Positions 4,477 through 56,082 of a stretch of 56,082 bases of DNA are shown one piece after another. How positions within the stretch are numbered: position 1 is the first letter of the stretch; every line of letters starts with the position of its first letter. A program made the translations under genes and the position numbers. A model generated the notes under the pieces. It saw only the letters and a program-made list of their open reading frames with translations. It had not been told where the DNA came from and did no database searches. Source of the stretch: a virus (taxonomy: Duplodnaviria > Caudoviricetes); the IMG/VR virus record IMGVR_UViG_3300011417_000011, positions 1 to 56,082 of that record. One strand, given 5' to 3'.

Positions 4477-5558
4477 TTCCTTCTCCAGAATTTGCGGAGG
4501 CGAGAAGGCTCCCCATCCGCGTTCCTAACGCCATCGTTAAAGCTATTCTTGAAGCACTCGTGCTCTATATCCATCATAATCGGCTGACCCGTGCGTAGGT
4601 AGTGGTTCTGCTTGACGGGGACACAGCCAGGATCGGACAGAGTATCTTCCAACCTTAGATAAGAGGGAAGATACTTTGTCCGAGCCTCCCAGAACACCGA
4701 GAAGTCTATCTCGGGCCATGAATACTCGGCAGCACAAATACGATCGTGCATGAGGTCGTTGTAGACGTTTGGATACCTACGATTCAGCCGATGCCAGCTT
4801 TTGTACGTGCATAGAGCGCTCTCAAGGGTGAAGAGGTTCGCATCCTTACTACCCATAGCACCTCGCTCATGTACCTCAGCCAGTATTTCATCTGCCTCTT
4901 GGATAAGTGTCTCCACCAGACCCGGCGGATAATCGCCTCCGAACATTGGATTTGAATGGTGCCAGTCATACTCATCTCTCCCAGTAACGATGCAGAGACC
5001 GTTCCTGTGCGACTTACTACCGCTCATATCGTGAAGGAAGAGTGTGTCGCAGTCGAATTTGACACCAGCGATTTTAAGGTATTCGCTGTATGAGAAGGCT
5101 GAGAGTCGGCCAAAGGTGTAGACAGAAGTCGCCGCGTCCCAGATGGCGGAGAAACCACCATCTGCAATTTGGTCCAAGAACTTCTTCTGACTATAATCTC
5201 CAAGGAGATTATAATACGACGCCAAAGACTCCATAAGGAAAGGTTTATGGTGCCGTCGATCGGTGTCGTACTGAAGACGGCCATAGTTCTCCTCGTAGAA
5301 CTTCTTCAACGATCCAAGATCATCCTTGCCTGCATTGAAGAGGAGCCAACTTGTAACTGGGTTCTGCGTGTTACCGTTGAGGAAACAGAAGAAGAGCGTC
5401 TGCTCATCATCCCACTTATACCGCTCTCGAAGGAATGGTATTAGATAGTACACACCACCGGGATGGGACTTGTACCGAAGATGAAATTCATAGAACCGAA
5501 GGAATGTTTCTCTTCGGTATTCCTTCTTCCGGAAGTCGAGCCCAGGTGATAGGGTCAT
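4473..5558 (-). CDS. aGPT-Pplase2 family amino acid:DNA transferase
   Basis: DFR..EYRRE.F..FY.FHL.Y.SHPG, YDTDRR, FGRLSAFSY.EY, TLESALCTYK, RRYPNVY. Confidence 0.8.
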   Translation of the reverse strand: MTLSPGLDFRKKEYRRETFLRFYEFHLRYKSHPGGVYYLIPFLRERYKWDDEQTLFFCFLNGNTQNPVTSWLLFNAGKDDLGSLKKFYEENYGRLQYDTDRRHHKPFLMESLASYYNLLGDYSQKKFLDQIADGGFSAIWDAATSVYTFGRLSAFSYSEYLKIAGVKFDCDTLFLHDMSGSKSHRNGLCIVTGRDEYDWHHSNPMFGGDYPPGLVETLIQEADEILAEVHERGAMGSKDANLFTLESALCTYKSWHRLNRRYPNVYNDLMHDRICAAEYSWPEIDFSVFWEARTKYLPSYLRLEDTLSDPGCVPVKQNHYLRTGQPIMMDIEHECFKNSFNDGVRNADGEPSRLRKFWRRK

Positions 5559-6322
5559 CTCTGGGCCACCAGAAGAACTTTGCCGGTTAACTTCCGACCG
5601 GCCCAGCGATATGCTTTGAGTCCGTATCGGCGATCAAGATCCAAGCCATGAGGTGGATCATCTCCTGGCTCTGACATCTCGTTCAGAACATAGTCATCAT
5701 GAATAATATGCAAGTTAGAGCCGCTGATCTGAACGCCAAGATCTACAGCTTCCTTTATGATCTTCTTGCGGTAGTGGTCTAGGAAGCCGGAAGTTGGCTT
5801 ATGGCTTAGATACGCACAAACAGTGAAAGCAAAGGGCATATTCCTGAATATAAGCGAAAGAAGGGCAGAGACCGCCCTCCCTGAGTCGTCTTGAACCAGG
5901 ACATGACCATATGTCCCAAACATGTCAGGATGGGTAAGAAGCCGCTCCCGGATCGTCTTCGTTATCTCTAGGCAGTCGCTCCAGTCCCAGAGAATCAGGC
6001 TCTCGCCGATGCCGTTCTTCTTAATGAAGAACCGGACGATTGCTTCTTGTTCACTGAGCTTAGCGCGCTCAATCAACATCGGGATCGCGCCGTGTGCCGC
6101 GGCTTCGGCGTGCCGTGACTCTGGGCCGCCAGAAGTAAAGAAGAGGCACTGCCTTTCCCTAGCTTGGCACGCTTTAGCAAGAGAAAGAGAGAAGGTCGTG
6201 TAAGATCTTTCGATCGTCGAGATCGTAATAAATTTAGGAATCCGATTCAACATCTCGAATAGGCCAGCCTCCTCGGGTTCTGTGCCTAGGGTTATAACCG
6301 AAATGTCGATCTTGCCCGCCAT
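5555..6322 (-). CDS. Divergent fold-type II PLP-enzyme-like protein
   Basis: LAKACQ...CLFF segment, DSG glycine-loop remnant, C-terminal LDRRYGLKAY.W...KVLL resembling LDxxYxxK; adjacent to the amino acid:DNA transferase. Confidence 0.45.
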   Translation of the reverse strand: MAGKIDISVITLGTEPEEAGLFEMLNRIPKFITISTIERSYTTFSLSLAKACQARERQCLFFTSGGPESRHAEAAAHGAIPMLIERAKLSEQEAIVRFFIKKNGIGESLILWDWSDCLEITKTIRERLLTHPDMFGTYGHVLVQDDSGRAVSALLSLIFRNMPFAFTVCAYLSHKPTSGFLDHYRKKIIKEAVDLGVQISGSNLHIIHDDYVLNEMSEPGDDPPHGLDLDRRYGLKAYRWAGRKLTGKVLLVAQR

Positions 6323-6334
6323 CGCCAATCCCCC

Positions 6335-8851
6335 TTAGTTGCAGTCTCGACGGCCAGTAGCCGGATCGAACGCGCAGGATGAAGGCTCAACGTCCTTCAA
6401 AATCGGTGCGCGTTTCCCTTCCATCTGAAACGTCGTACAACCTTTACAGCCATTCTTCCAAGCCTGGAAATAAAGATTCTTGAAATCTTCCCATTTTGTG
6501 GAAGCTGGGACGTTGCAAGTCTTCGACACGGAGGAGTCTACGTGTTCAGAGGCAGCGACGAGCACGGCAAGATGCTCGTCTATACTTACATCCGCCGCCT
6601 TCTTACCGAACACGCCAAAGTTCTTAACGCCATAATCCTCGACCGTGATTTTACGAGGTCCTTCGAACTCGATGACGGTCCGTTCTGTCTTGTGAGAAAA
6701 GACAGGTTCGATTCCGCTAGAGACGTTATCAGCGCACAGGCTAATCGTGCCAGTCGGGGCGATAGACGTCAAGTGCGAGTTGCGAATACCGTGTCGTTTA
6801 ATTCCAGCACGAGTTTCTTCGCTGAGACTTCGAATGAACTGCCCATCGAGATACTCATCCTCATACTTAGGGAAGGAACCTTTCTCCTTTGCTAAGTCGA
6901 TGGAAGCTCGGTAACATCCTTCCTTGATTATTCTTAGGATGGTTTCAGTCAGGCTAATGAATTCAGGAGTTCCATATTTAAGGCCCTGTGCTTCACACGC
7001 ATTCGCGAGACCCGTTACGCCCAGACCCATCCGTCGCTTACTCCGCGCTTCTTTCTCCTGCTCATAGAGCGGATAGACAGCGCGGTCTACGACATTATCC
7101 ATCGCGCGAACAACATGCGGGATGTCCTCCTCAAGCATGCCGAGGCGGAACGCGTTATTATCATTCTTATCAACGTATTTGGCGAGGTTAAAGGAGCCAA
7201 GTAGACAAGCACCATAAGGAGGTAAAGGTTGCTCCCCGCAGTTATGTACGAGGACGCCGTCGTTCTTGCCGGTTTGGATGAAGAAACGATTAGTTTCTTC
7301 GACAGTTCCACAAAAGACATCTTCTACTTCTTCGAGGAATTCGACAGAGATGACCTTATGGTTAGCCGTCTTGATCCGATGCTGAACCGTGTACTTCGAG
7401 CAACCAACTTGCTTCGCAATTTTGTTGAAGCTAAGACCAGACCCACGAAGCTCAAGAATTTTTTCCGTGGAGACTTCATCTCTCCAACGGCCATTCTTTG
7501 GCCCTCGTGTGCAATCTGGGAAAAGCTTCATTGGGTTTCTGCCCGGCATCCTTCTTAAAGGATTAGAGTCACCAGACATATGAAGACGCTGGTGCTCAGT
7601 AGAGTCGATGACCTCTAGATTCGAAGGCCTGTTATCGCCTTTCTTGCCGTTGATATGATGGGTATGGACTTTAGATCCAAGACCCTTAATTCCTTCAAAC
7701 GGGACATGATGTTCAAGTGGGTGAACAATTCCGTTCAAAAGGTTTAAGTACCCTTTCGAATTGGCCTTATGCCTATAGACGGATGCCAAAGAATCCTTAG
7801 GCTGTAGATCCTTTGCTTTGCACTCACTACCATCACGCATATAGAAAACGTGATTAGGAGTACAACGAATCTCGCCACCATTATCAAGCTTAATCCTAAC
7901 TAACTTTGCTTTGGTCGCAGTCCGACGAATGTTAGCCATTTTTCGATAGACAAGTTTACCATCAGGAAGCTGTGTTAGGACGAGGACACTTTCCGGGTTA
8001 GCCTCAGCGAGAGTCGAGAACTGGACAGGTCCATACTCTGCTGTCCATACATGAGTATCACCAGTGAAACAGGGATTCGTCGCAGCGATCTGTTCGCAAT
8101 AGTACAGGTTATTCATGCGGTTGATCGCGTCGATGAATAGGACGCCAGGTTCCGCCCAGTCCCAAGTCGAGCGCATGATTTGTTCCCAGAGAGCGCGAGC
8201 ATCAATCTCGCGGTAGTTCTCTCCAGCAAACTTCAGCATGAACGGGGTGCCACTCTCGACGCACTGCATGAAGCCGTCAGTCACGGCGATCGAGATATTG
8301 AATCCCGTAAGGCGCGTCCCATTTTGCTTCGCGTGGACGAATTCCTCGATATCTGGGTGATCAACGCGGAGAACACCCATCTGGGCTCCGCGCCGGTGCC
8401 CAGAGGAGGCGACGCAACGGCAGATAGCGTCGAAAATATCCATGAAGGATATCGGACCAGAGGACTTGGAACTCAGCTTGCGGATCAGAGCGCCGCGTGG
8501 GCGGAGCGTGCTGAAGTCGTAACCGATTCCACCTCCCATCCTCATCGTAATCGCCGCTTCCTTCGCACGCTCCATGATAGAGCCGTGGCCATCGACGAAG
8601 GAGTCCTCGATGGTTCCACTGACGAAGCAGTTGTACGGCGTCGTTCGCTTGGAGGACCCAATCGCTGACTGGATCCTACCACCTGGCAAGAAGCGCATCC
8701 CGAGAAGGATGTCGCGTGTCTTGAAGTAATGCTCGTCGTTGTCTTTGAGCGCCGAAGCGACCCGGTTCATTGCCTCCTTGAATGTCTCCCCACCGTGTCG
8801 GTACTTCTCAGCGTGCAGCGTGTCCGAAAACTCTAGTTGCGGCCCTTCCAC
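6335..8851 (-). CDS. nrdJ: Class II (B12-dependent) ribonucleotide reductase with intein
   Basis: FLPGGR, NCFV, GGGIGYDFS.LRP, RRGAQM, EPGVLFID, TNP|CGEQ, ACLLGS, SIAPTGTIS, VSKT, KGCTTF; no beta-subunit gene nearby. Confidence 0.92.
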   Translation of the reverse strand: MEGPQLEFSDTLHAEKYRHGGETFKEAMNRVASALKDNDEHYFKTRDILLGMRFLPGGRIQSAIGSSKRTTPYNCFVSGTIEDSFVDGHGSIMERAKEAAITMRMGGGIGYDFSTLRPRGALIRKLSSKSSGPISFMDIFDAICRCVASSGHRRGAQMGVLRVDHPDIEEFVHAKQNGTRLTGFNISIAVTDGFMQCVESGTPFMLKFAGENYREIDARALWEQIMRSTWDWAEPGVLFIDAINRMNNLYYCEQIAATNPCFTGDTHVWTAEYGPVQFSTLAEANPESVLVLTQLPDGKLVYRKMANIRRTATKAKLVRIKLDNGGEIRCTPNHVFYMRDGSECKAKDLQPKDSLASVYRHKANSKGYLNLLNGIVHPLEHHVPFEGIKGLGSKVHTHHINGKKGDNRPSNLEVIDSTEHQRLHMSGDSNPLRRMPGRNPMKLFPDCTRGPKNGRWRDEVSTEKILELRGSGLSFNKIAKQVGCSKYTVQHRIKTANHKVISVEFLEEVEDVFCGTVEETNRFFIQTGKNDGVLVHNCGEQPLPPYGACLLGSFNLAKYVDKNDNNAFRLGMLEEDIPHVVRAMDNVVDRAVYPLYEQEKEARSKRRMGLGVTGLANACEAQGLKYGTPEFISLTETILRIIKEGCYRASIDLAKEKGSFPKYEDEYLDGQFIRSLSEETRAGIKRHGIRNSHLTSIAPTGTISLCADNVSSGIEPVFSHKTERTVIEFEGPRKITVEDYGVKNFGVFGKKAADVSIDEHLAVLVAASEHVDSSVSKTCNVPASTKWEDFKNLYFQAWKNGCKGCTTFQMEGKRAPILKDVEPSSCAFDPATGRRDCN
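7241..8071 (-). mobile_element. Intein (277 aa) with HNH homing endonuclease in RNR
   Basis: Starts CFTGDT, block B CTPNH, HNH HHINGKKGDNRPSNLE, HTH-like segment, ends VLVHN followed by Cys+1; removal restores TNPCGEQ. Confidence 0.93.
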
Positions 8852-16447: not shown

Positions 16448-17090
16448 CGATGGTCTCCGGGGGCTCGGCGAGGCGAGCCTCGGGTGAGGTCGGTAAGGCC
16501 TTTACACCATCGAGCCTCCCCAACGCGGCTTGGGCCGAGAGTCTTCGCCCTTGGTCCTGGAGGGCTAAAATCCGCTCCGGCGACAGGCTCCGAGGGGGCG
16601 TGTACCGCACCTTAAGCGCGCGAAACGCCCTTCGGAGGTCGTTTCGCGCGCTCCGTCCGATGAACCGGCTTACCAACCTGACGTACACGTTTGCGAACGG
16701 CCAGGAGTGACCGCACACGTAGCCTGTGGCTACGTGTGCGAGCTCATGAAGGATGACAGGCAGCGTGATCATCAACGTCCCGAACTTAAGACCGTCACGA
16801 GAATCCGCGCTCGCGCCTTTCTTCTGTGACTTGATGAGCGTCACGCGGAACTGTCCTTCGTAAGGGGTGACGTTGAACTCACGAAGGATCGATTTCCAGG
16901 TCTTCGACCTACGAACGCGCCGAATGACCTTTTGGATTCCGCGTTCATCTGGGCGATCAAGAAGAACGTCGAAGGCCGAATCGAACGCGTTACGCTCGGC
17001 TCGGTACAGCCTCTTCCTTTGACTATCCCTTCTGGGCAGTCGGTAGACCGTGGTGACGTTCTTGACTGTCCTTCTCACAGCTACAGCCAT
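16323..17090 (-). CDS. HEXXH zinc metalloprotease-like protein (SprT/Rv0185-like)
   Basis: RDSQR.RLYRAE, VILHELAH....GH..PF; AAGGAG RBS. Confidence 0.75.
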   Translation of the reverse strand: MAVAVRRTVKNVTTVYRLPRRDSQRKRLYRAERNAFDSAFDVLLDRPDERGIQKVIRRVRRSKTWKSILREFNVTPYEGQFRVTLIKSQKKGASADSRDGLKFGTLMITLPVILHELAHVATGYVCGHSWPFANVYVRLVSRFIGRSARNDLRRAFRALKVRYTPPRSLSPERILALQDQGRRLSAQAALGRLDGVKALPTSPEARLAEPPETIVIPPQRDIGSRAERRSFASQGLRGSSRPSVSRPRPLSHGVR

Positions 17091-17131
17091 CTTCGCTCTC
17101 CTTGGGTTCTGTGGGTTCTAGCCAAAGGATG

Positions 17132-17160
17132 AGTTTACCGTCTCATCGCCCTTCGCGCTA
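17132..17160 (-). promoter_or_regulatory. Putative promoter TAGCGC-N17-TAAACT
   Basis: Matches 13565-13593; AT-rich tract upstream. Confidence 0.45.
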
Positions 17161-17199
17161 CATAAAAATTACGGCACTGGATGGTTTTGGTCTTTCCCG

Positions 17200-17482
17200 G
17201 GGCGCGGTCGGCCGCCCGTCCCTCTCCCCTGCACCTGCCCACCCGCACGCCAAGGACCGCGCTACGCGGCGCGATCGCGTGGTCGAGGTGCTGCATGCGC
17301 TGAAGGCCGCCGGCCCCACGCAGATCACCAAGGCGATTCAGAAGCGGTGGGGCGAGGACGCCGCCAACGTGGCGAACGTGAACGACATCCTCCGCACCGA
17401 CAAGATCGCCGAGCAGGTCGGCGATGGGACGTGGAAGTTGACCGCCATCATCGGCGACTGGAAGCCGTTCGCGGTGACCTGA
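17200..17482 (+). pseudogene. 5'-truncated winged-helix-like ORF (IS cargo)
   Basis: RRDRVVEVLHALK..GPTQITKAI...VNDILR.....EQVGDGTWKL; no credible start inside the element. Confidence 0.45.
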
Positions 17483-17567
17483 TCGACGCCGAGAAGGGAG
17501 AGCGCGATGCTCAGGAAAGTTGAGGCGCCGATGACTCGGCGGCGCCGTGACTAGTAAGTCAGAAGCC

Positions 17568-17612
17568 GGGGAGCGGCGGTAGCATCTTCGCGGGACGTTT
17601 CCGCCGCTCCCC
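17568..17612 (+). other. GC-rich stem-loop upstream of tRNA-Asn
   Basis: Perfect 12-bp stem GGGGAGCGGCGG / CCGCCGCTCCCC. Confidence 0.55.
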
Positions 17613-17626
17613 TCCGAGCTTTCAAC

Positions 17627-17699
17627 GCCCCCGTAGTTCAGTGGCATGAACAGCGGATTGTTAATCCGCCTGTCGCGGGTTCGAACCCCGCCGGGGGCG
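17627..17699 (+). tRNA. tRNA-Asn(GTT)
   Basis: Acceptor GCCCCCG/CGGGGGC, D arm GTTC/GAAC, anticodon arm GCGGA-TTGTTAA-TCCGC, T arm GCGGG-TTCGAAC-CCCGC, G73; followed by CCT rather than CCA. Confidence 0.92.
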
Positions 17700-17752
17700 C
17701 CTAAAGCGTCGTCTATTTTGACGTAGTGGGTACACACTGGAGAAGCCCCCTC

Positions 17753-18090
17753 TTAGGAGAGAAGCTCCAGGATCTCCCATCTCCGGTGCTCGATACCAGC
17801 ACGTTGAGCTGGTGTCTCCCCCTTCAACGTGATGTGCGGGCGGCAGTAATTGTGGTGGGCGTAATGCAGCGCCATTGCCGCTCGTAGGGCGTCCGCGCTC
17901 TTGGAGAAGTTGAGCGTGAGTCTGGCGAACTGGGACGATCCCATGCGCAGGGACAGATTCCAGCGCGAAGCAGCAACTTCGTCACCGACTCGCGGTCCAC
18001 GTCGCACAGGCGCGCCGTCGAGCGCATGCTGTTGCCCTCGACCAAGGCGGAGAGGATCAACGCCTGCTTTTCCTGCTTCAGAACGTTCAC
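17753..18090 (-). pseudogene. Internally deleted IS1-family transposase
   Basis: N-terminal HTH (LVEGNSMRSTARLCDVDRESV..LL) joined out of frame to the C-terminus (NLSLRM...RLT..FSK...HNYCRPH.TL..TPA..AG...W); DDE core missing. Confidence 0.8.
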
Positions 18091-53384: not shown

Positions 53385-53512
53385 TGGAGAGTCCTAGAAA
53401 GAACCAGCACAAACACCACCGCGGTAACTACACAGAACACGAACAGGCGCATTGCTACAACGGTAATGCACCCGAGGATAAGCCCAGTTAACCCTGTCCA
53501 GCGCCGTCTCAT
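53381..53512 (-). CDS. 43-aa membrane peptide
   Basis: MRRRWTGLTGLILGCITVVAMRLFVFCVVTAVVFVLVLSRTLQ; ATGA overlaps at both ends. Confidence 0.55.
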   Translation of the reverse strand: MRRRWTGLTGLILGCITVVAMRLFVFCVVTAVVFVLVLSRTLQ

Positions 53513-53865
53513 CTCAGCACCGCCGCCATATCGGGACCCTTCCATCCATCTGGTTTAACAATGGAGGTAACGAGGACACCCTCCTTCGCCATATTAGCGC
53601 GATGGACCTCGGCCCAGCACCGATCAGGGTCTATCCCAAGTTCCACGAACATGCCCAAAACACTATAGATTACATCAACACCTTCTTGGGCAAGTTCCTC
53701 GCGCTTCCAGTCCTTCCTTCTCAGTGCGTCGAGTAGTTCACCACACTCTTCCTCGATTCGGCTAGCACGCGACTTGAGAAGATCTCGATCCCTTCGCAAT
53801 TTCTCACCGAAAGGGCGAAGTGAGAATTTCTTATGGAACTTAAGGACATCGAGAGGCCAGTTCAT
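53509..53865 (-). CDS. MazG-like/PRA-PH family NTP pyrophosphohydrolase
   Basis: V.KFH.KF, IEEE.GEL, E.VD..Y, EVHRANMAK, KP.GW..PD. Confidence 0.85.
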   Translation of the reverse strand: MNWPLDVLKFHKKFSLRPFGEKLRRDRDLLKSRASRIEEECGELLDALRRKDWKREELAQEGVDVIYSVLGMFVELGIDPDRCWAEVHRANMAKEGVLVTSIVKPDGWKGPDMAAVLR

Positions 53866-53980
53866 TCAATCACCGTCACTACAGCACCGTAGCACTTGAA
53901 GCCTGGGAACTGAGAGCTCTCCGACGTAATGAAGCCAACACAGAAGGAGTTAGCTGGAAATCCACTATCCACGGACACGT

Positions 53981-54274
53981 CTATTCCGGTCCAATCCCGC
54001 GCTTCGCCAACGCGGCCATAAGACTCTTTCCCCACAGCCTGAACGGTTTCTTCTTGTTGTCAAACTTCACGATCTTAGCCCGACAGCGCTGCCCAGAATC
54101 GTCGCGGATATTGACGAAACGAGCGGTCACCGCCACACAGTGAACTGGGCACACGGCCACCAGTCGCCGCGCTCTCTTTTCCGTCACAGGTCTACCTACT
54201 CGAATCCGATACTCATCGGTCGTGCCAAGGACCTCATTCTCATAGGTTCCATGACGGTAGATGTTGTACCGCAC
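53981..54274 (-). CDS. Hypothetical basic protein
   Basis: GTG start with GAG-rich RBS. Confidence 0.45.
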   Translation of the reverse strand: MRYNIYRHGTYENEVLGTTDEYRIRVGRPVTEKRARRLVAVCPVHCVAVTARFVNIRDDSGQRCRAKIVKFDNKKKPFRLWGKSLMAALAKRGIGPE

Positions 54275-54296
54275 TCTCTCATCTCCATTCTAATGA

Positions 54297-54371
54297 TCTA
54301 GCCGACAGGATTTGAACCTGCGACCTCCTGGTTCCAGGCCAGGCGCTCTAGTCAAGCTGAGCTACGACTAG
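54297..54371 (-). tRNA. tRNA-Pro(TGG), atypical
   Basis: Acceptor CTAGTCG/CGGCTAG, D stem GCTC/GAGC, anticodon arm CCTGG-CCTGGAA-CCAGG, T arm GCAGG-TTCAAAT-CCTGT, A73; has C33, A37, no D-loop GG, and ends TCA. Confidence 0.75.
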
Positions 54372-54389
54372 ATCTTTCGTTCAGCCGGC

Positions 54390-54821
54390 TCAGTCTTGAA
54401 CGCGACGCCGCGTCGCGTAGTCGGCCTGATACGTCACCTGGAACGTGCCAGCAGGAATGCGATGCGCCGCGTGCTCCGGGTGCGTCAGCAGCCACGGCTT
54501 GGCCGCCACGACCACCGGCCCGAGCAGATCCCCCTTCGCGCACCACTCTGGCGCCTTCAAGTACGCCGGAAGCTGCTCGCCCTCGAACACCTTGAGCTCG
54601 CCCTCGGCGATGTGCCGCGAGCCGACCGTGGTCCCGACGGCAACCTGCCGCGAGCCGCGCTCCACGCCGCGCGGATGGTCCGCCGCGACGCGATGCAGGT
54701 ACACGTCACCCTGATGGACCGTCTTGCCGATCGCGAGTCTCTCCGTCACGCGCTCGGCCGGGTCGGACCGATGCTCGATCACCTTCTGGATCTCTGGCGC
54801 GATCTTCGTCTGCACGGGCAT
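54390..54821 (-). CDS. His-rich partner protein of DUF6745-like gene
   Basis: HQGDV, VA.G...GSRH, LTHPEH....IP.G.F.V..Q; AAGGAG RBS. Confidence 0.7.
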   Translation of the reverse strand: MPVQTKIAPEIQKVIEHRSDPAERVTERLAIGKTVHQGDVYLHRVAADHPRGVERGSRQVAVGTTVGSRHIAEGELKVFEGEQLPAYLKAPEWCAKGDLLGPVVVAAKPWLLTHPEHAAHRIPAGTFQVTYQADYATRRRVQD

Positions 54822-54828
54822 CTCCTTG

Positions 54829-55683
54829 TTAGGACTTCGAAACGATTCGCGACTCATCGAAACCGCAGAGCGCGCGGTGCGCCTCTGCGCATGTCTTCGT
54901 ATTCGGTGGCACCTCGTTGTGATAGACGCGGCCGGTGGAACCGTCCGTCCATACCACAAAACGTCTCCCTTCGTCATCCTCTTGCAGCGCACGCGGGGCA
55001 GACCCGACGATAGCGCCTTCCACGTCGGCGTCGATCAGCTTGGCGCCGATGTCCTCGAGATAGCGCCCCTCGCCGTAAATCTCGCGCATCACCCGACGAA
55101 CCTCGGCGTTCTCCTCTGCCTTGATCTTCTTCAAGGTGATTTGGTCGTGGTGGAGGATAACCCAGTCTGGAACCAGGGTGCCGTGATACGCGAATAGAGA
55201 GAACCCGTCTGGGTACTCGCACGCCGGTCCATCCTCGCAGTGTAGGTTGCCTTGGTCGTCCAGCTTGAGCATCGAGGTCCGCTCGCAAGCAAACGCCTCT
55301 TGATCGTAGAACCATACCCATCCGCATGTTTGTGCAAGGCGGATCAGCGCGTCAAGCTCTTTCACTTCCTCTGTGAGTCCGACGACCTGCCCCATGAAGT
55401 CGTAGAACGACAGCCACGAAGCGTCATGTTGCCCGTACGCAGACGAAGACCAAGACGCCTCCTTGTCGATCTTTCGGACAGCAGTAAGCGCCGCGAGGGG
55501 TGATTGGTGCCAAGAGATAACCTTGGGCGGTGGGAGGTTGTCTGTGGCGTAGGCGTCGCGGATTGCAGCCTCGGCTAGCGTACGATTCGCCGGATCACAG
55601 CAAAGGCCAATCTGGATCCACTTTTGGAAAAACTCCTCCTCACGCGCCATCTGCTCTTCCGTGAGGAATTCAATCCTGTTCAT
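54829..55683 (-). CDS. DUF6745-like protein
   Basis: I..LT.EQ, SPLAA, YGQHDA.WL.FY, CGW.W, LHCEDGPA.EYPDGF...A.HG, I..E.NAEVRR, DGSTGR.Y; AGGAGG RBS. Confidence 0.78.
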   Translation of the reverse strand: MNRIEFLTEEQMAREEEFFQKWIQIGLCCDPANRTLAEAAIRDAYATDNLPPPKVISWHQSPLAALTAVRKIDKEASWSSSAYGQHDASWLSFYDFMGQVVGLTEEVKELDALIRLAQTCGWVWFYDQEAFACERTSMLKLDDQGNLHCEDGPACEYPDGFSLFAYHGTLVPDWVILHHDQITLKKIKAEENAEVRRVMREIYGEGRYLEDIGAKLIDADVEGAIVGSAPRALQEDDEGRRFVVWTDGSTGRVYHNEVPPNTKTCAEAHRALCGFDESRIVSKS

Positions 55684-55994
55684 CGCAGCCTCCTTTTTCG
55701 TGCGTTTGTCCACTGGAGCTCCTCCACGACGCGATCCCTGACACGATCCCAGACACGATTCCGGACGCGAGCCCAGACACAATCCCGGACACGATCCCAG
55801 ACGCGATCCCCGACACGATCCAGGACACGATTCCGGACGCGATCCCCGACACGATCCCGGACGCGATCCCAGACACGATCCCAGACACGATCCCAGACAT
55901 GATCCTCGACGTGATCCTCGACGTGATCCTCGACACGAGCCCGGACACGATCCCCGACACGATCCCAGACACGATCCCAGACGCGAGTGCTCAC
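55680..55994 (-). CDS. Tetrapeptide-repeat protein (21 x V-x-D-R)
   Basis: GTG start; stop overlaps the DUF6745-like ATG; synonymous third-position variation supports this frame. Confidence 0.65.
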   Translation of the reverse strand: MSTRVWDRVWDRVGDRVRARVEDHVEDHVEDHVWDRVWDRVWDRVRDRVGDRVRNRVLDRVGDRVWDRVRDCVWARVRNRVWDRVRDRVVEELQWTNARKRRLR

Positions 55995-56082
55995 TGGATT
56001 CTCTACCCGACACGATCCAGGACACGATCCGCGACACGATCCCAGACCCGATTCCGGACGCGAGCCCCGACACGATCCCGGA
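55727..56082 (-). repeat. 12-bp tandem repeats (consensus GTC TGG GAT CGT) in two blocks
   Basis: Directly visible; interrupted at ~55985-56005; continues off the window edge. Confidence 0.92.
56003..56082 (-). CDS. Second tetrapeptide-repeat ORF (3' end only)
   Basis: ...RDRVGARVRNRVWDRVADRVLDRVG-TAG. Confidence 0.5.
   Translation of the reverse strand, partial: RDRVGARVRNRVWDRVADRVLDRVG

Follow-up and report, generated by a model that had tools for sequence, protein, structure and literature searches.

At the upper end of IMGVR_UViG_3300011417_000011, an IMG/VR virus record that we analysed whole (56082 bp, linear, CheckV completeness 83%; hereafter the window), a 12-bp tandem array lies ahead of a DUF6745 gene that has no repeat of its own, which raises the question of whether this array is coding and, if so, what its products do beside the DUF6745 protein. 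We propose, with a probability of roughly 0.6, that the locus is the promoter-distal end of an accessory operon of the source phage, an uncultured freshwater phage, in which the hypervariable tetrapeptide tract of the DUF6745 family is detached and encoded as a chain of free-standing (V-x-D-R)n mini-genes with fixed ends, next to a core made of a tract-less DUF6745 protein and its partner, and that the whole serves as a host-conflict module.

The array lies on the minus strand at 55728..56079, with the unit TGGGATCGTGTC, read as W-D-R-V. Tandem Repeats Finder gave a period of 12, 28.9 copies and 77% matches at 55728-56079, and an 11-mer of the unit (at most one mismatch) was found 21 times, always on the minus strand and within this interval, against 1.44 matches expected and with 0 of 100 shuffles reaching 21. 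The array overlaps at least two chained open reading frames (ORFs) with fixed caps, upstream of the DUF6745 gene. The complete mini-ORF (55680..55994, minus strand) opens with GTG and encodes 104 amino acids, namely 21 V-x-[D/A/N]-[R/H/C] units, in which x is W, R, G, E or L (units counted by reading), and the C-terminal tail VVEELQWTNARKRRLR. Of the mini-ORF upstream of it the 3' end is present (56003..56080, minus strand), 25 amino acids (RDRVGARV...LDRVG) followed by TAG at 56005-56003, its 5' part lying past the contig end. The initial annotation of this DNA had described serial V-x-D-R ORFs, with 21 units in the complete one and the same five residues at x, and had taken the complete ORF to be translationally coupled to the DUF6745 gene; array, unit count and residues were all recovered, and the TGA of the mini-ORF (55682-55680) overlaps the DUF6745 ATG (55683-55681) as ATGA.

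The repeat-less DUF6745 gene (54829..55683, minus strand) has an AAGGAGG upstream of its ATG at 55683 and encodes 284 amino acids, or 294 from an alternative GTG at 55713. Its family membership, also claimed from the letters alone, is firm: the protein matched PF20530 in Pfam (E 4e-38, 131.2 bits against a cut-off of 27) over residues 83-270 of a 285-residue query, whose numbering, with one extra codon, is followed here; the genome search gave 131.6 bits, and phrog_31813 matched with E 7e-12. An N-terminal LT-x-EQ ... PA(D/N)R ... SPL domain precedes the DUF6745 domain (alignments A1 and A2), and the conserved residues of the family include W123, H149 and N193. Between the N-domain and YGQHD, where the segment had been called short and repeat-free, we indeed found a short plain linker, LTAVRKIDKEASWSSSA, without a period-4 tract. 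In an AF2 model (predicted local distance difference test, pLDDT, 92.3; predicted template modelling score, pTM, 0.82) this linker is the loop 74-85 between helices 63-73 and 86-102.

In the relatives, this is where the repeats sit. The homologue search found 136 proteins, and a simple test for period 4 showed a tetrapeptide tract in 38 of the 120 listed, placed between the N-domain (SPL) and YGQHD; the initial annotation had described such repeats as often lying between SP and YGQHD, and its own counter-case, a family whose homologues never carry them, falls with the same count. A survey of fused against split forms, which it had suggested, covered the best 80 of 214 viral and the best 80 of 150 genome matches with 5-kb flanks. 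An internal period-4 tract was present in 78 of the 80 viral loci (24 contigs start inside the ORF) and in 20 of the 80 genome loci (among them L048, a doubtful 1286-residue open frame); the only viral loci lacking it were L115 and L168, the latter with a detached chain of its own. Among ten non-identical metagenome loci, nine have an internal tract and the tenth gave no match. The tracts are of the types V[WRG][DA]Q, SV[RWG][AD], AT[WR][AD], L[WRG][DG]Q and SL[GR]D, and share with the window array both x = W/R/G (an NGG codon) and the D/A alternation. In the nearest non-identical relative, L006 (51% identity), the DNA unit behind about 20 internal V[WRG][DA]Q units equals the window unit at 10 of 12 positions. 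It follows from this match that detached array and internal tract are homologous as DNA; judged from sequence, the array is the family's own tract, and the earlier idea of a tetrapeptide repeat split out of the family protein agrees with the L006 unit and with the viral survey. The fused proteins (L006; gp38 of the Mycobacterium prophage prophiGD102-1, where the pair is gp37/gp38 and gp38 holds about 50 L-x-x-Q units) share the N- and C-domains of the window protein, the tract chemistry (hydrophobic anchor, x = W/R/G, D/A) and the adjacent partner, but carry the tract within the polypeptide, between the domains, whereas the window has a plain linker there and the tract upstream, in separate chained ORFs.

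Three near-identical metagenome contigs (L003, L004 and L005) have the same array joined to the DUF6745 gene (99-100% identity), the partner and the downstream genes. Extending the contig, as had been proposed, thus succeeded in part: L003 shows at least three chained ORFs (5'-open..159; 156-596, 146 amino acids; 593-931) before a DUF6745 gene that starts at 928, but each of the assemblies stops within the array. Unit numbers in the last module are 21 (window), 23 (L003), 14 (L004) and 23 (L005), and the lengths differ by multiples of 12 nt. Successive modules are joined by a junction of 26 nt (55983..56008, minus strand, in the window) that takes in the stop codon of the preceding ORF, a GTGA, and the opening of the next ORF, namely its GTG and the three codons after it. 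Since 26 nt are two units plus 2 nt, each module is shifted by -1 from the preceding one, and despite these steps every frame bounded by a module's own start and stop reads V-x-D-R. The GTG sits within a GTGA that overlaps the preceding stop, about 8 nt 3' of GGGGAG, a GGAG-like site; full modules open with GTG-AAC-ACC-ACC (MNTT; MSTR in the window) and close with V-G-E-K-I-Q-TGA. Five inter-module junctions could be compared (one in the window, two in L003, one each in L004 and L005): a stop in the V-x-D-R frame and a GTG in the next V-x-D-R frame are kept at all five despite base variants, and the length is 26 nt in the four seen whole, the L004 junction being cut by the contig start. The last junction before DUF6745 is a diverged copy in which TGA has become TGG and the ORF continues to the ATGA at the DUF6745 start; its GTG, homologous to a module start, is the alternative DUF6745 start at 55713.

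A comparison of 127 units showed no change at positions 10 and 11 or at three of the four third codon positions (3, 6 and 12), and variation at positions 1, 2, 4, 5 and 8. Position 1 (C43/G38/T36/A10) yields W/R/G and position 5 (A108/C18/G1) yields D/A, whereas the changes at position 9, the remaining third codon position (T85/C41/G1), are silent. With C/G/T/A, A/C and T/C at the variable positions, the changes are not confined to adenine, unlike those of a diversity-generating retroelement; no reverse-transcriptase family was found among the 36 of 59 large ORFs scanned on this incomplete contig. We prefer the V-x-D-R frame because the other frames are not bounded module by module, because the same NGG and D/A variability recurs in tracts whose frame is fixed by flanking domains, and because an unrelated lineage, L168, repeats the design.

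In L168, a viral contig (IMG/VR record), a partner gene (4621-4968) and a tract-less DUF6745 gene (4971-5915) are accompanied by eight mini-ORFs, two upstream and six downstream of this core, the last one cut by the contig end. Their units are x-x-S-L, their N-cap is VIPLGKPL and their C-cap SLREDLTP; they start at a GTG in a GTGA overlapping the preceding TGA or the DUF6745 stop, and the frames step 1-0 and 1-0-2-1-0-2. L168 thus shares with the window the partner, the tract-less DUF6745 and mini-ORFs that have fixed caps and are chained by GTGA overlaps with -1 steps, while unit, caps and core all differ and the arrays stand on both sides of the core. No other observation speaks as strongly for the chains being functional genes as this recurrence of one architecture with a different unit, different caps and a different core. 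When all loci and their 5-kb flanks were scanned for period 4 at the protein level, flanking chains appeared in L168 alone, and the period-12 arrays outside DUF6745 genes in L103, L147, L153, L123 and L072 were rejected as mini-gene chains, since they belong to other proteins (G-x-G-Y-rich, or like gp54 of phage Tweety, discussed below).

What weighs against the proposed reading concerns coding, taken up here, and the function of the array products, taken up further on. A 12-bp array without stops is inevitably open in three frames, and all three minus-strand frames are open through this one. In the G-I-V-S frame the most variable base (unit position 1, with all four bases) is the silent third base of TCN and most other changes are conservative; judged by variation alone, that frame appears better conserved. 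The mini-ORFs are unrecorded by gene callers: an exact look-up of seven candidate ORFs from the three frames found 0 of 7 in a protein collection, and the complete window mini-ORF was absent among the eight matches of a protein-collection search. The junction copies stem from one duplication and hence are not independent, and at the window junction the GGAG-like site is weaker and a TAG comes earlier. Contigs from RNA libraries (runs X19 and X20) lie on the partner, DUF6745 and the array, but they may be DNA carry-over, and we rejected them as evidence of transcription: 53400-54030 is not covered although parts of the operon are. We infer translation of the mini-ORFs from their sequence.

Open frames, missing database entries and variation that is mostly silent or conservative in another frame would also be expected if the array were untranslated DNA, either the decaying remnant of a displaced tract or a recombination-prone simple repeat, with the ORFs as by-products of a stop-free unit; a scan of the available operon part for promoters and terminators, which gave nothing above shuffles, points the same way. 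We consider this unlikely, since stop, GTG start and 26-nt length have been maintained at the junctions in the face of base changes, the bounded frame always yields the family tetrapeptide, and L168 has the same design with another unit and other caps. More degenerate stand-alone small proteins of the V-x-x-R type also exist elsewhere (e.g. P0137, P0139 and P0142).

The array breaks every assembly. It holds the end of the window and the starts of L003, L004 and L005; in runs X1 and X2 the long contigs (3146 and 31910 nt) stop at 55761 and 55752, respectively, and the array is present in these runs solely as pieces of 51-113 nt. Such a pattern could come from a collapsed or chimeric repeat at a contig end, which the initial annotation had itself named as a danger. 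It was right in that contigs do end in the array and the count is unreliable, but the array itself was found in four contigs and four runs: the Logan contigs of four public runs (X1, X2, X19 and X20) agree with the four contigs on unit, junction and DUF6745 link, and L003 spans two whole junctions, which confines the unreliability to unit count and order. An artefact is thus extremely improbable. The summed contig depth of the array exceeds that of the flank 6-9x in X2 (340-523 against 56.8) and 2.6-5.5x in X1 (21-44 against 7.97), and the junction sequence forms a loose end at no fewer than five different array positions (runs X2 and X20). The broken assemblies, the raised depth and the loose ends at many positions show that the array is genuine and is probably far longer than in any of the assemblies; unit and module number and order are unreliable in any one contig. 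Scans for close relatives with a single protein found none in the genome and viral contig collections, and the exact 26-nt junction pattern had no match in the viral contig collection.

Two side observations belong here. A 255-nt loose end in run X2 leaves the array at 55737, one unit from its DUF6745-proximal edge, and its first letters on the minus strand hold an ATG and module-start-like codons; this end may mark where the array as a whole begins on its far (5') side, or may stem from a variant in which a different gene lies upstream. Among the viral contigs surveyed (L097-L176), the DUF6745 ORF is interrupted by the contig start, in or beside the tract, in 24 of 80, so that such tracts often cause contig breaks in viral metagenome assemblies.

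The regular frame steps bear on a further alternative, in which a -1 shift or readthrough at each junction would give one long poly-tract protein, perhaps fused to DUF6745. Every module stands exactly -1 from the previous one, the DUF6745 frame meets no stop across the array up to the contig end (417 amino acids in the window, 534 in L003), and in a relative, L016, a single ORF passes through one array in three frames. We nevertheless hold a single product to be highly improbable. By reading, the junctions contain no X-XXY-YYZ slippery site; homologues start M-x-(I/L)-E-x-LT-x-EQ, resembling the window ATG start, and the members of the window protein's cluster have 284 and 294 amino acids, none fused to repeats. 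The initial annotation had noted that the repeats are open in the DUF6745 frame, so that fusions would need only small changes; open it is, but this frame reads G-S-C-x and G-I-V-S across the array rather than V-x-D-R, and a fusion in it would lack the tetrapeptide and place the tract before the N-domain instead of between the domains, so this second part is not sustained. In L016 (1829-2268) the DUF6745 ORF runs through VWDQ, GPSL, SGAK and VRDQ by three single-base insertions in homopolymer runs, with a net shift of +3 that leaves the gene open; we rejected it as a natural mosaic, the shifts being likely homopolymer indel errors of long reads. A related case is L141 (4944-6139), where N-domain plus tract and C-domain stand in different frames, owing to a frameshift or an assembly error inside the tract.

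The second component of the core is encoded directly downstream of DUF6745 (54390..54821, minus strand; 143 amino acids, all-beta model, AF2 pLDDT 84.4). The initial annotation had called it a His-rich, coupled partner. Its association with DUF6745 is conserved in dozens of loci; coupling by overlap did not hold up, as the gene starts 7 nt after the DUF6745 stop, and of the 8 His in its 143 residues three are invariant across the family. In alignment A3, built from 20 sequences, 13 columns do not vary, including Q37-G38-D39, H70, H114-x-E116-H117, Q132 and the C-terminal D143, and the window protein shows all the family motifs (QGDV, G-x-x-x-G-x-x-H, H-x-EH, Q-x-(E/D)-Y and the C-terminal D) as well as the position beside DUF6745. 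Relatives lie directly downstream of DUF6745 in L016, L006, L008 and L007 (E 1e-40 to 5e-17), and a related protein of about 105 amino acids lies directly upstream of DUF6745, on the same strand, in dozens of further loci; the tract-less bacterial DUF6745 loci also keep the partner. The downstream ORF is thus a true conserved partner of DUF6745.

The window partner itself had no match in PHROG, Pfam or NCBIfam. Six of the eight partner relatives tested matched phrog_27831 (function unknown; E 1e-14 to 6e-19), the nearest two, L016 and L007, did not, and none of those tested matched Pfam. Against 1.84 billion representatives the partner profile gave 8836 matches at E<=1e-3 and 5279 at E<=1e-10, the best 150 of the 8836 being mostly 100-120 amino acids long. 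A structure atlas search with the partner returned viral clusters labelled PF31129, a family absent from the Pfam copy used, and one 366-residue DUF6745 cluster at a template modelling (TM) score of 0.59, a possible fusion; no DUF6745-partner fusion was seen among the 293 proteins examined. One of the representatives, P0144 (4029 amino acids), holds at least 22 tandem stretches, about 107 residues apart, that match the middle of the partner profile, and so looks like a giant protein made of many copies of a partner-like beta unit.

Serial, precursor-like genes beside two proteins with invariant H, E, D and Q residues (Q37, G38, D39, H70, H114, E116 and H117 in the partner; W123, H149 and N193 in DUF6745) might also suggest that the mini-proteins resemble ribosomally synthesized and post-translationally modified peptides (RiPPs), repeated-core substrates for DUF6745 and/or a partner enzyme, with the substrate in cis in the fused relatives. 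Neither protein matches any known family or fold of enzymes, the surroundings of the locus showed neither a leader/core pattern nor a protease or transporter, and the tract-less bacterial members have retained the partner, all of which makes a RiPP-like role very improbable.

Returning to the detached-tract reading, the mechanism that we envisage begins with translation of the chain by termination-reinitiation, which would deliver several tract variants at once. Slippage of units and unequal crossing-over between the repeated junctions would change unit number, unit order and module number; the variants with 14, 21, 23 and 23 units and the many junction contexts suggest that such change is rapid. 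The free mini-proteins would supply in trans, by docking or as decoys, the variable surface of a DUF6745-partner core that would act in host conflict, probably as a counter-defence module by analogy with Tweety gp54, and one core with several mini-proteins would have several specificities. More tentatively, and well short of what we would call likely, the locus may be a combinatorial repertoire, in which an invariant core is armed in trans by many co-expressed and reshuffled mini-proteins and the junction acts both as translational coupler and as recombination site; if so, a single operon could cover many host targets, such as the variants of a defence sensor. The initial annotation had also considered recombination or slippage cassettes, but a donor needs an acceptor and none was found, the window protein having no tract.

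The best analogue, not a homologue, is gp54 of mycobacteriophage Tweety, a tunable counter-defence protein and the one studied phage protein of comparable build that we found. In gp54 unique N- and C-terminal parts flank 48 A-A-[G/W/Q]-[S/Y] units, with 26 in Che8 (gp57) and 15 in PMC (gp51); the repeats vary at first and second codon positions with the third ones frozen, and the phage can do without the gene (PMC2884959). Mutants that escape the defence by Phrann gp29/gp30 map to Tweety gene 54 and alter its repeat number, a change interpreted as adjusting how the two end domains are juxtaposed (PMC9262239). Gp54 and the window share a 12-nt unit that yields a tetrapeptide, a variable codon of the NGG type (G/W in gp54) and a copy number that varies between relatives, and the window shows variation of the gp54 type, with positions 1, 2, 4, 5 and 8 variable, 3, 6 and 12 frozen, and 14-23 units in the last module. 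The gp54 tract (A-A-x-x) is internal, whereas that of the window is detached. A more distant parallel is variable region 2 of bbp36 in Bordetella phage BMP-1, where, according to PMC2884959, a non-essential gene carries a short DNA repeat that is in frame and varies in copy number; there the element has 24 bp, against 12 bp in the window, and the protein is unrelated. The cultured Microcystis phage Ma-LMM01 has the core pair: its gp174 matches the DUF6745 C-domain (E 7e-9), and gp175, directly upstream, belongs to the partner family (hhalign 99.4%, E 3e-21). The linker of gp174 is non-repetitive, and the annotation shows no mini-gene array next to this gene, in contrast to the window.

Functionally, the points on the other side of the balance are these. 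Tweety gp54 had no Pfam match and reached an hhalign probability of 0.15% with the DUF6745 profile, which leaves counter-defence as an analogy; in Tweety the look for the partner family covered the Pfam matches of gp53, gp55 and gp56. The suggested host-conflict role draws on this analogy and on gene neighbourhood. For the DUF6745 fold, Foldseek against the PDB gave 0 matches at E<=1e-3, the wide VIA search a best Z of 4.4 (root-mean-square deviation 3.5, 46 residues aligned), the A1 profile 0 matches among PDB sequences, and the feature-based structure atlas a best score of 0.76 without a family; for the partner fold, Foldseek again gave 0 matches at E<=1e-3 and VIA a best Z of 2.8. In addition, 60 of the 80 bacterial loci have no tract, mostly in Actinoplanes and other Micromonosporaceae and not obviously in prophages. 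In Actinoplanes the DUF6745 gene adjoins a Ser/Thr kinase and a PP2C phosphatase. The relatives' genes otherwise lie in early or recombination regions of phages, with YqaJ, RecT, ERF, HNH, integrase, S24 repressor and methylase genes.

Hypervariable tetrapeptide tracts are common in phage accessory proteins, Tweety gp54 being the sole one with a phenotype, and the natural split of tract and core into separate genes makes the function of the tract directly testable. The gene architecture is itself unusual, with chains of tiny genes, a GTGA stop/start overlap and a regular -1 frame step. Detached arrays are probably under-counted in phage genomes because gene callers miss the ORFs and assemblers break in them. 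With 8836 representative clusters and no Pfam entry for the partner in the copy used, DUF6745 and its partner family form a large, conserved and uncharacterised phage/prophage module. A literature search found no paper that mentions 'DUF6745'; among the papers listed on phage tetrapeptide repeats, also in connection with anti-defence, only the Tweety work was relevant, and we found no published description of the detached mini-gene architecture.

Two loci that carry fused DUF6745 genes also hold, within 5 kb of them, proteins with a Cys-bearing N-domain and a short-period Ala-rich repeat (L072, 5971-6708, plus strand; L123, 150-878, minus strand). By eye, these N-domains resemble the N-terminus of Tweety gp54, and two kinds of repeat-tract protein may travel together.

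The remainder of the window is a tailed-phage genome with almost all genes on the minus strand. Among the 36 large ORFs scanned we identified both terminase subunits, portal, major head, tape measure and tail proteins, ribonucleotide reductase, thymidylate synthase (ThyX) and helicases. Directly 3' of the partner gene lies a tRNA-Pro (TGG; 54295..54372, minus strand; ARAGORN; Rfam RF00005, 59.9 bits), the only match in an Rfam search; we treat it as a neighbour of the DUF6745 system. No repeat of 14 nt or longer from this region recurs elsewhere in the window as a prophage junction at the tRNA-Pro might, and a rise in G+C to 0.60-0.62 was rejected as a junction sign because it is unspecific. 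Beyond the tRNA-Pro, in its 3' region of small ORFs, the 31910-nt contig of run X2 has 365 extra letters relative to the window at 53989/53990, an indel in which phage variants differ. A tRNA-Asn (GTT; 17627-17701, plus strand), the second tRNA of the window, stands on the strand opposite to nearly all genes, and the kilobase around it (17001-18000) is the most G+C-rich of the contig (0.619). Finally, in the ORF for the large subunit of ribonucleotide reductase (6335-8851, minus strand; 838 amino acids), residues 388-504 also match HNH endonuclease families, which may reflect an intein or a homing-endonuclease insertion.

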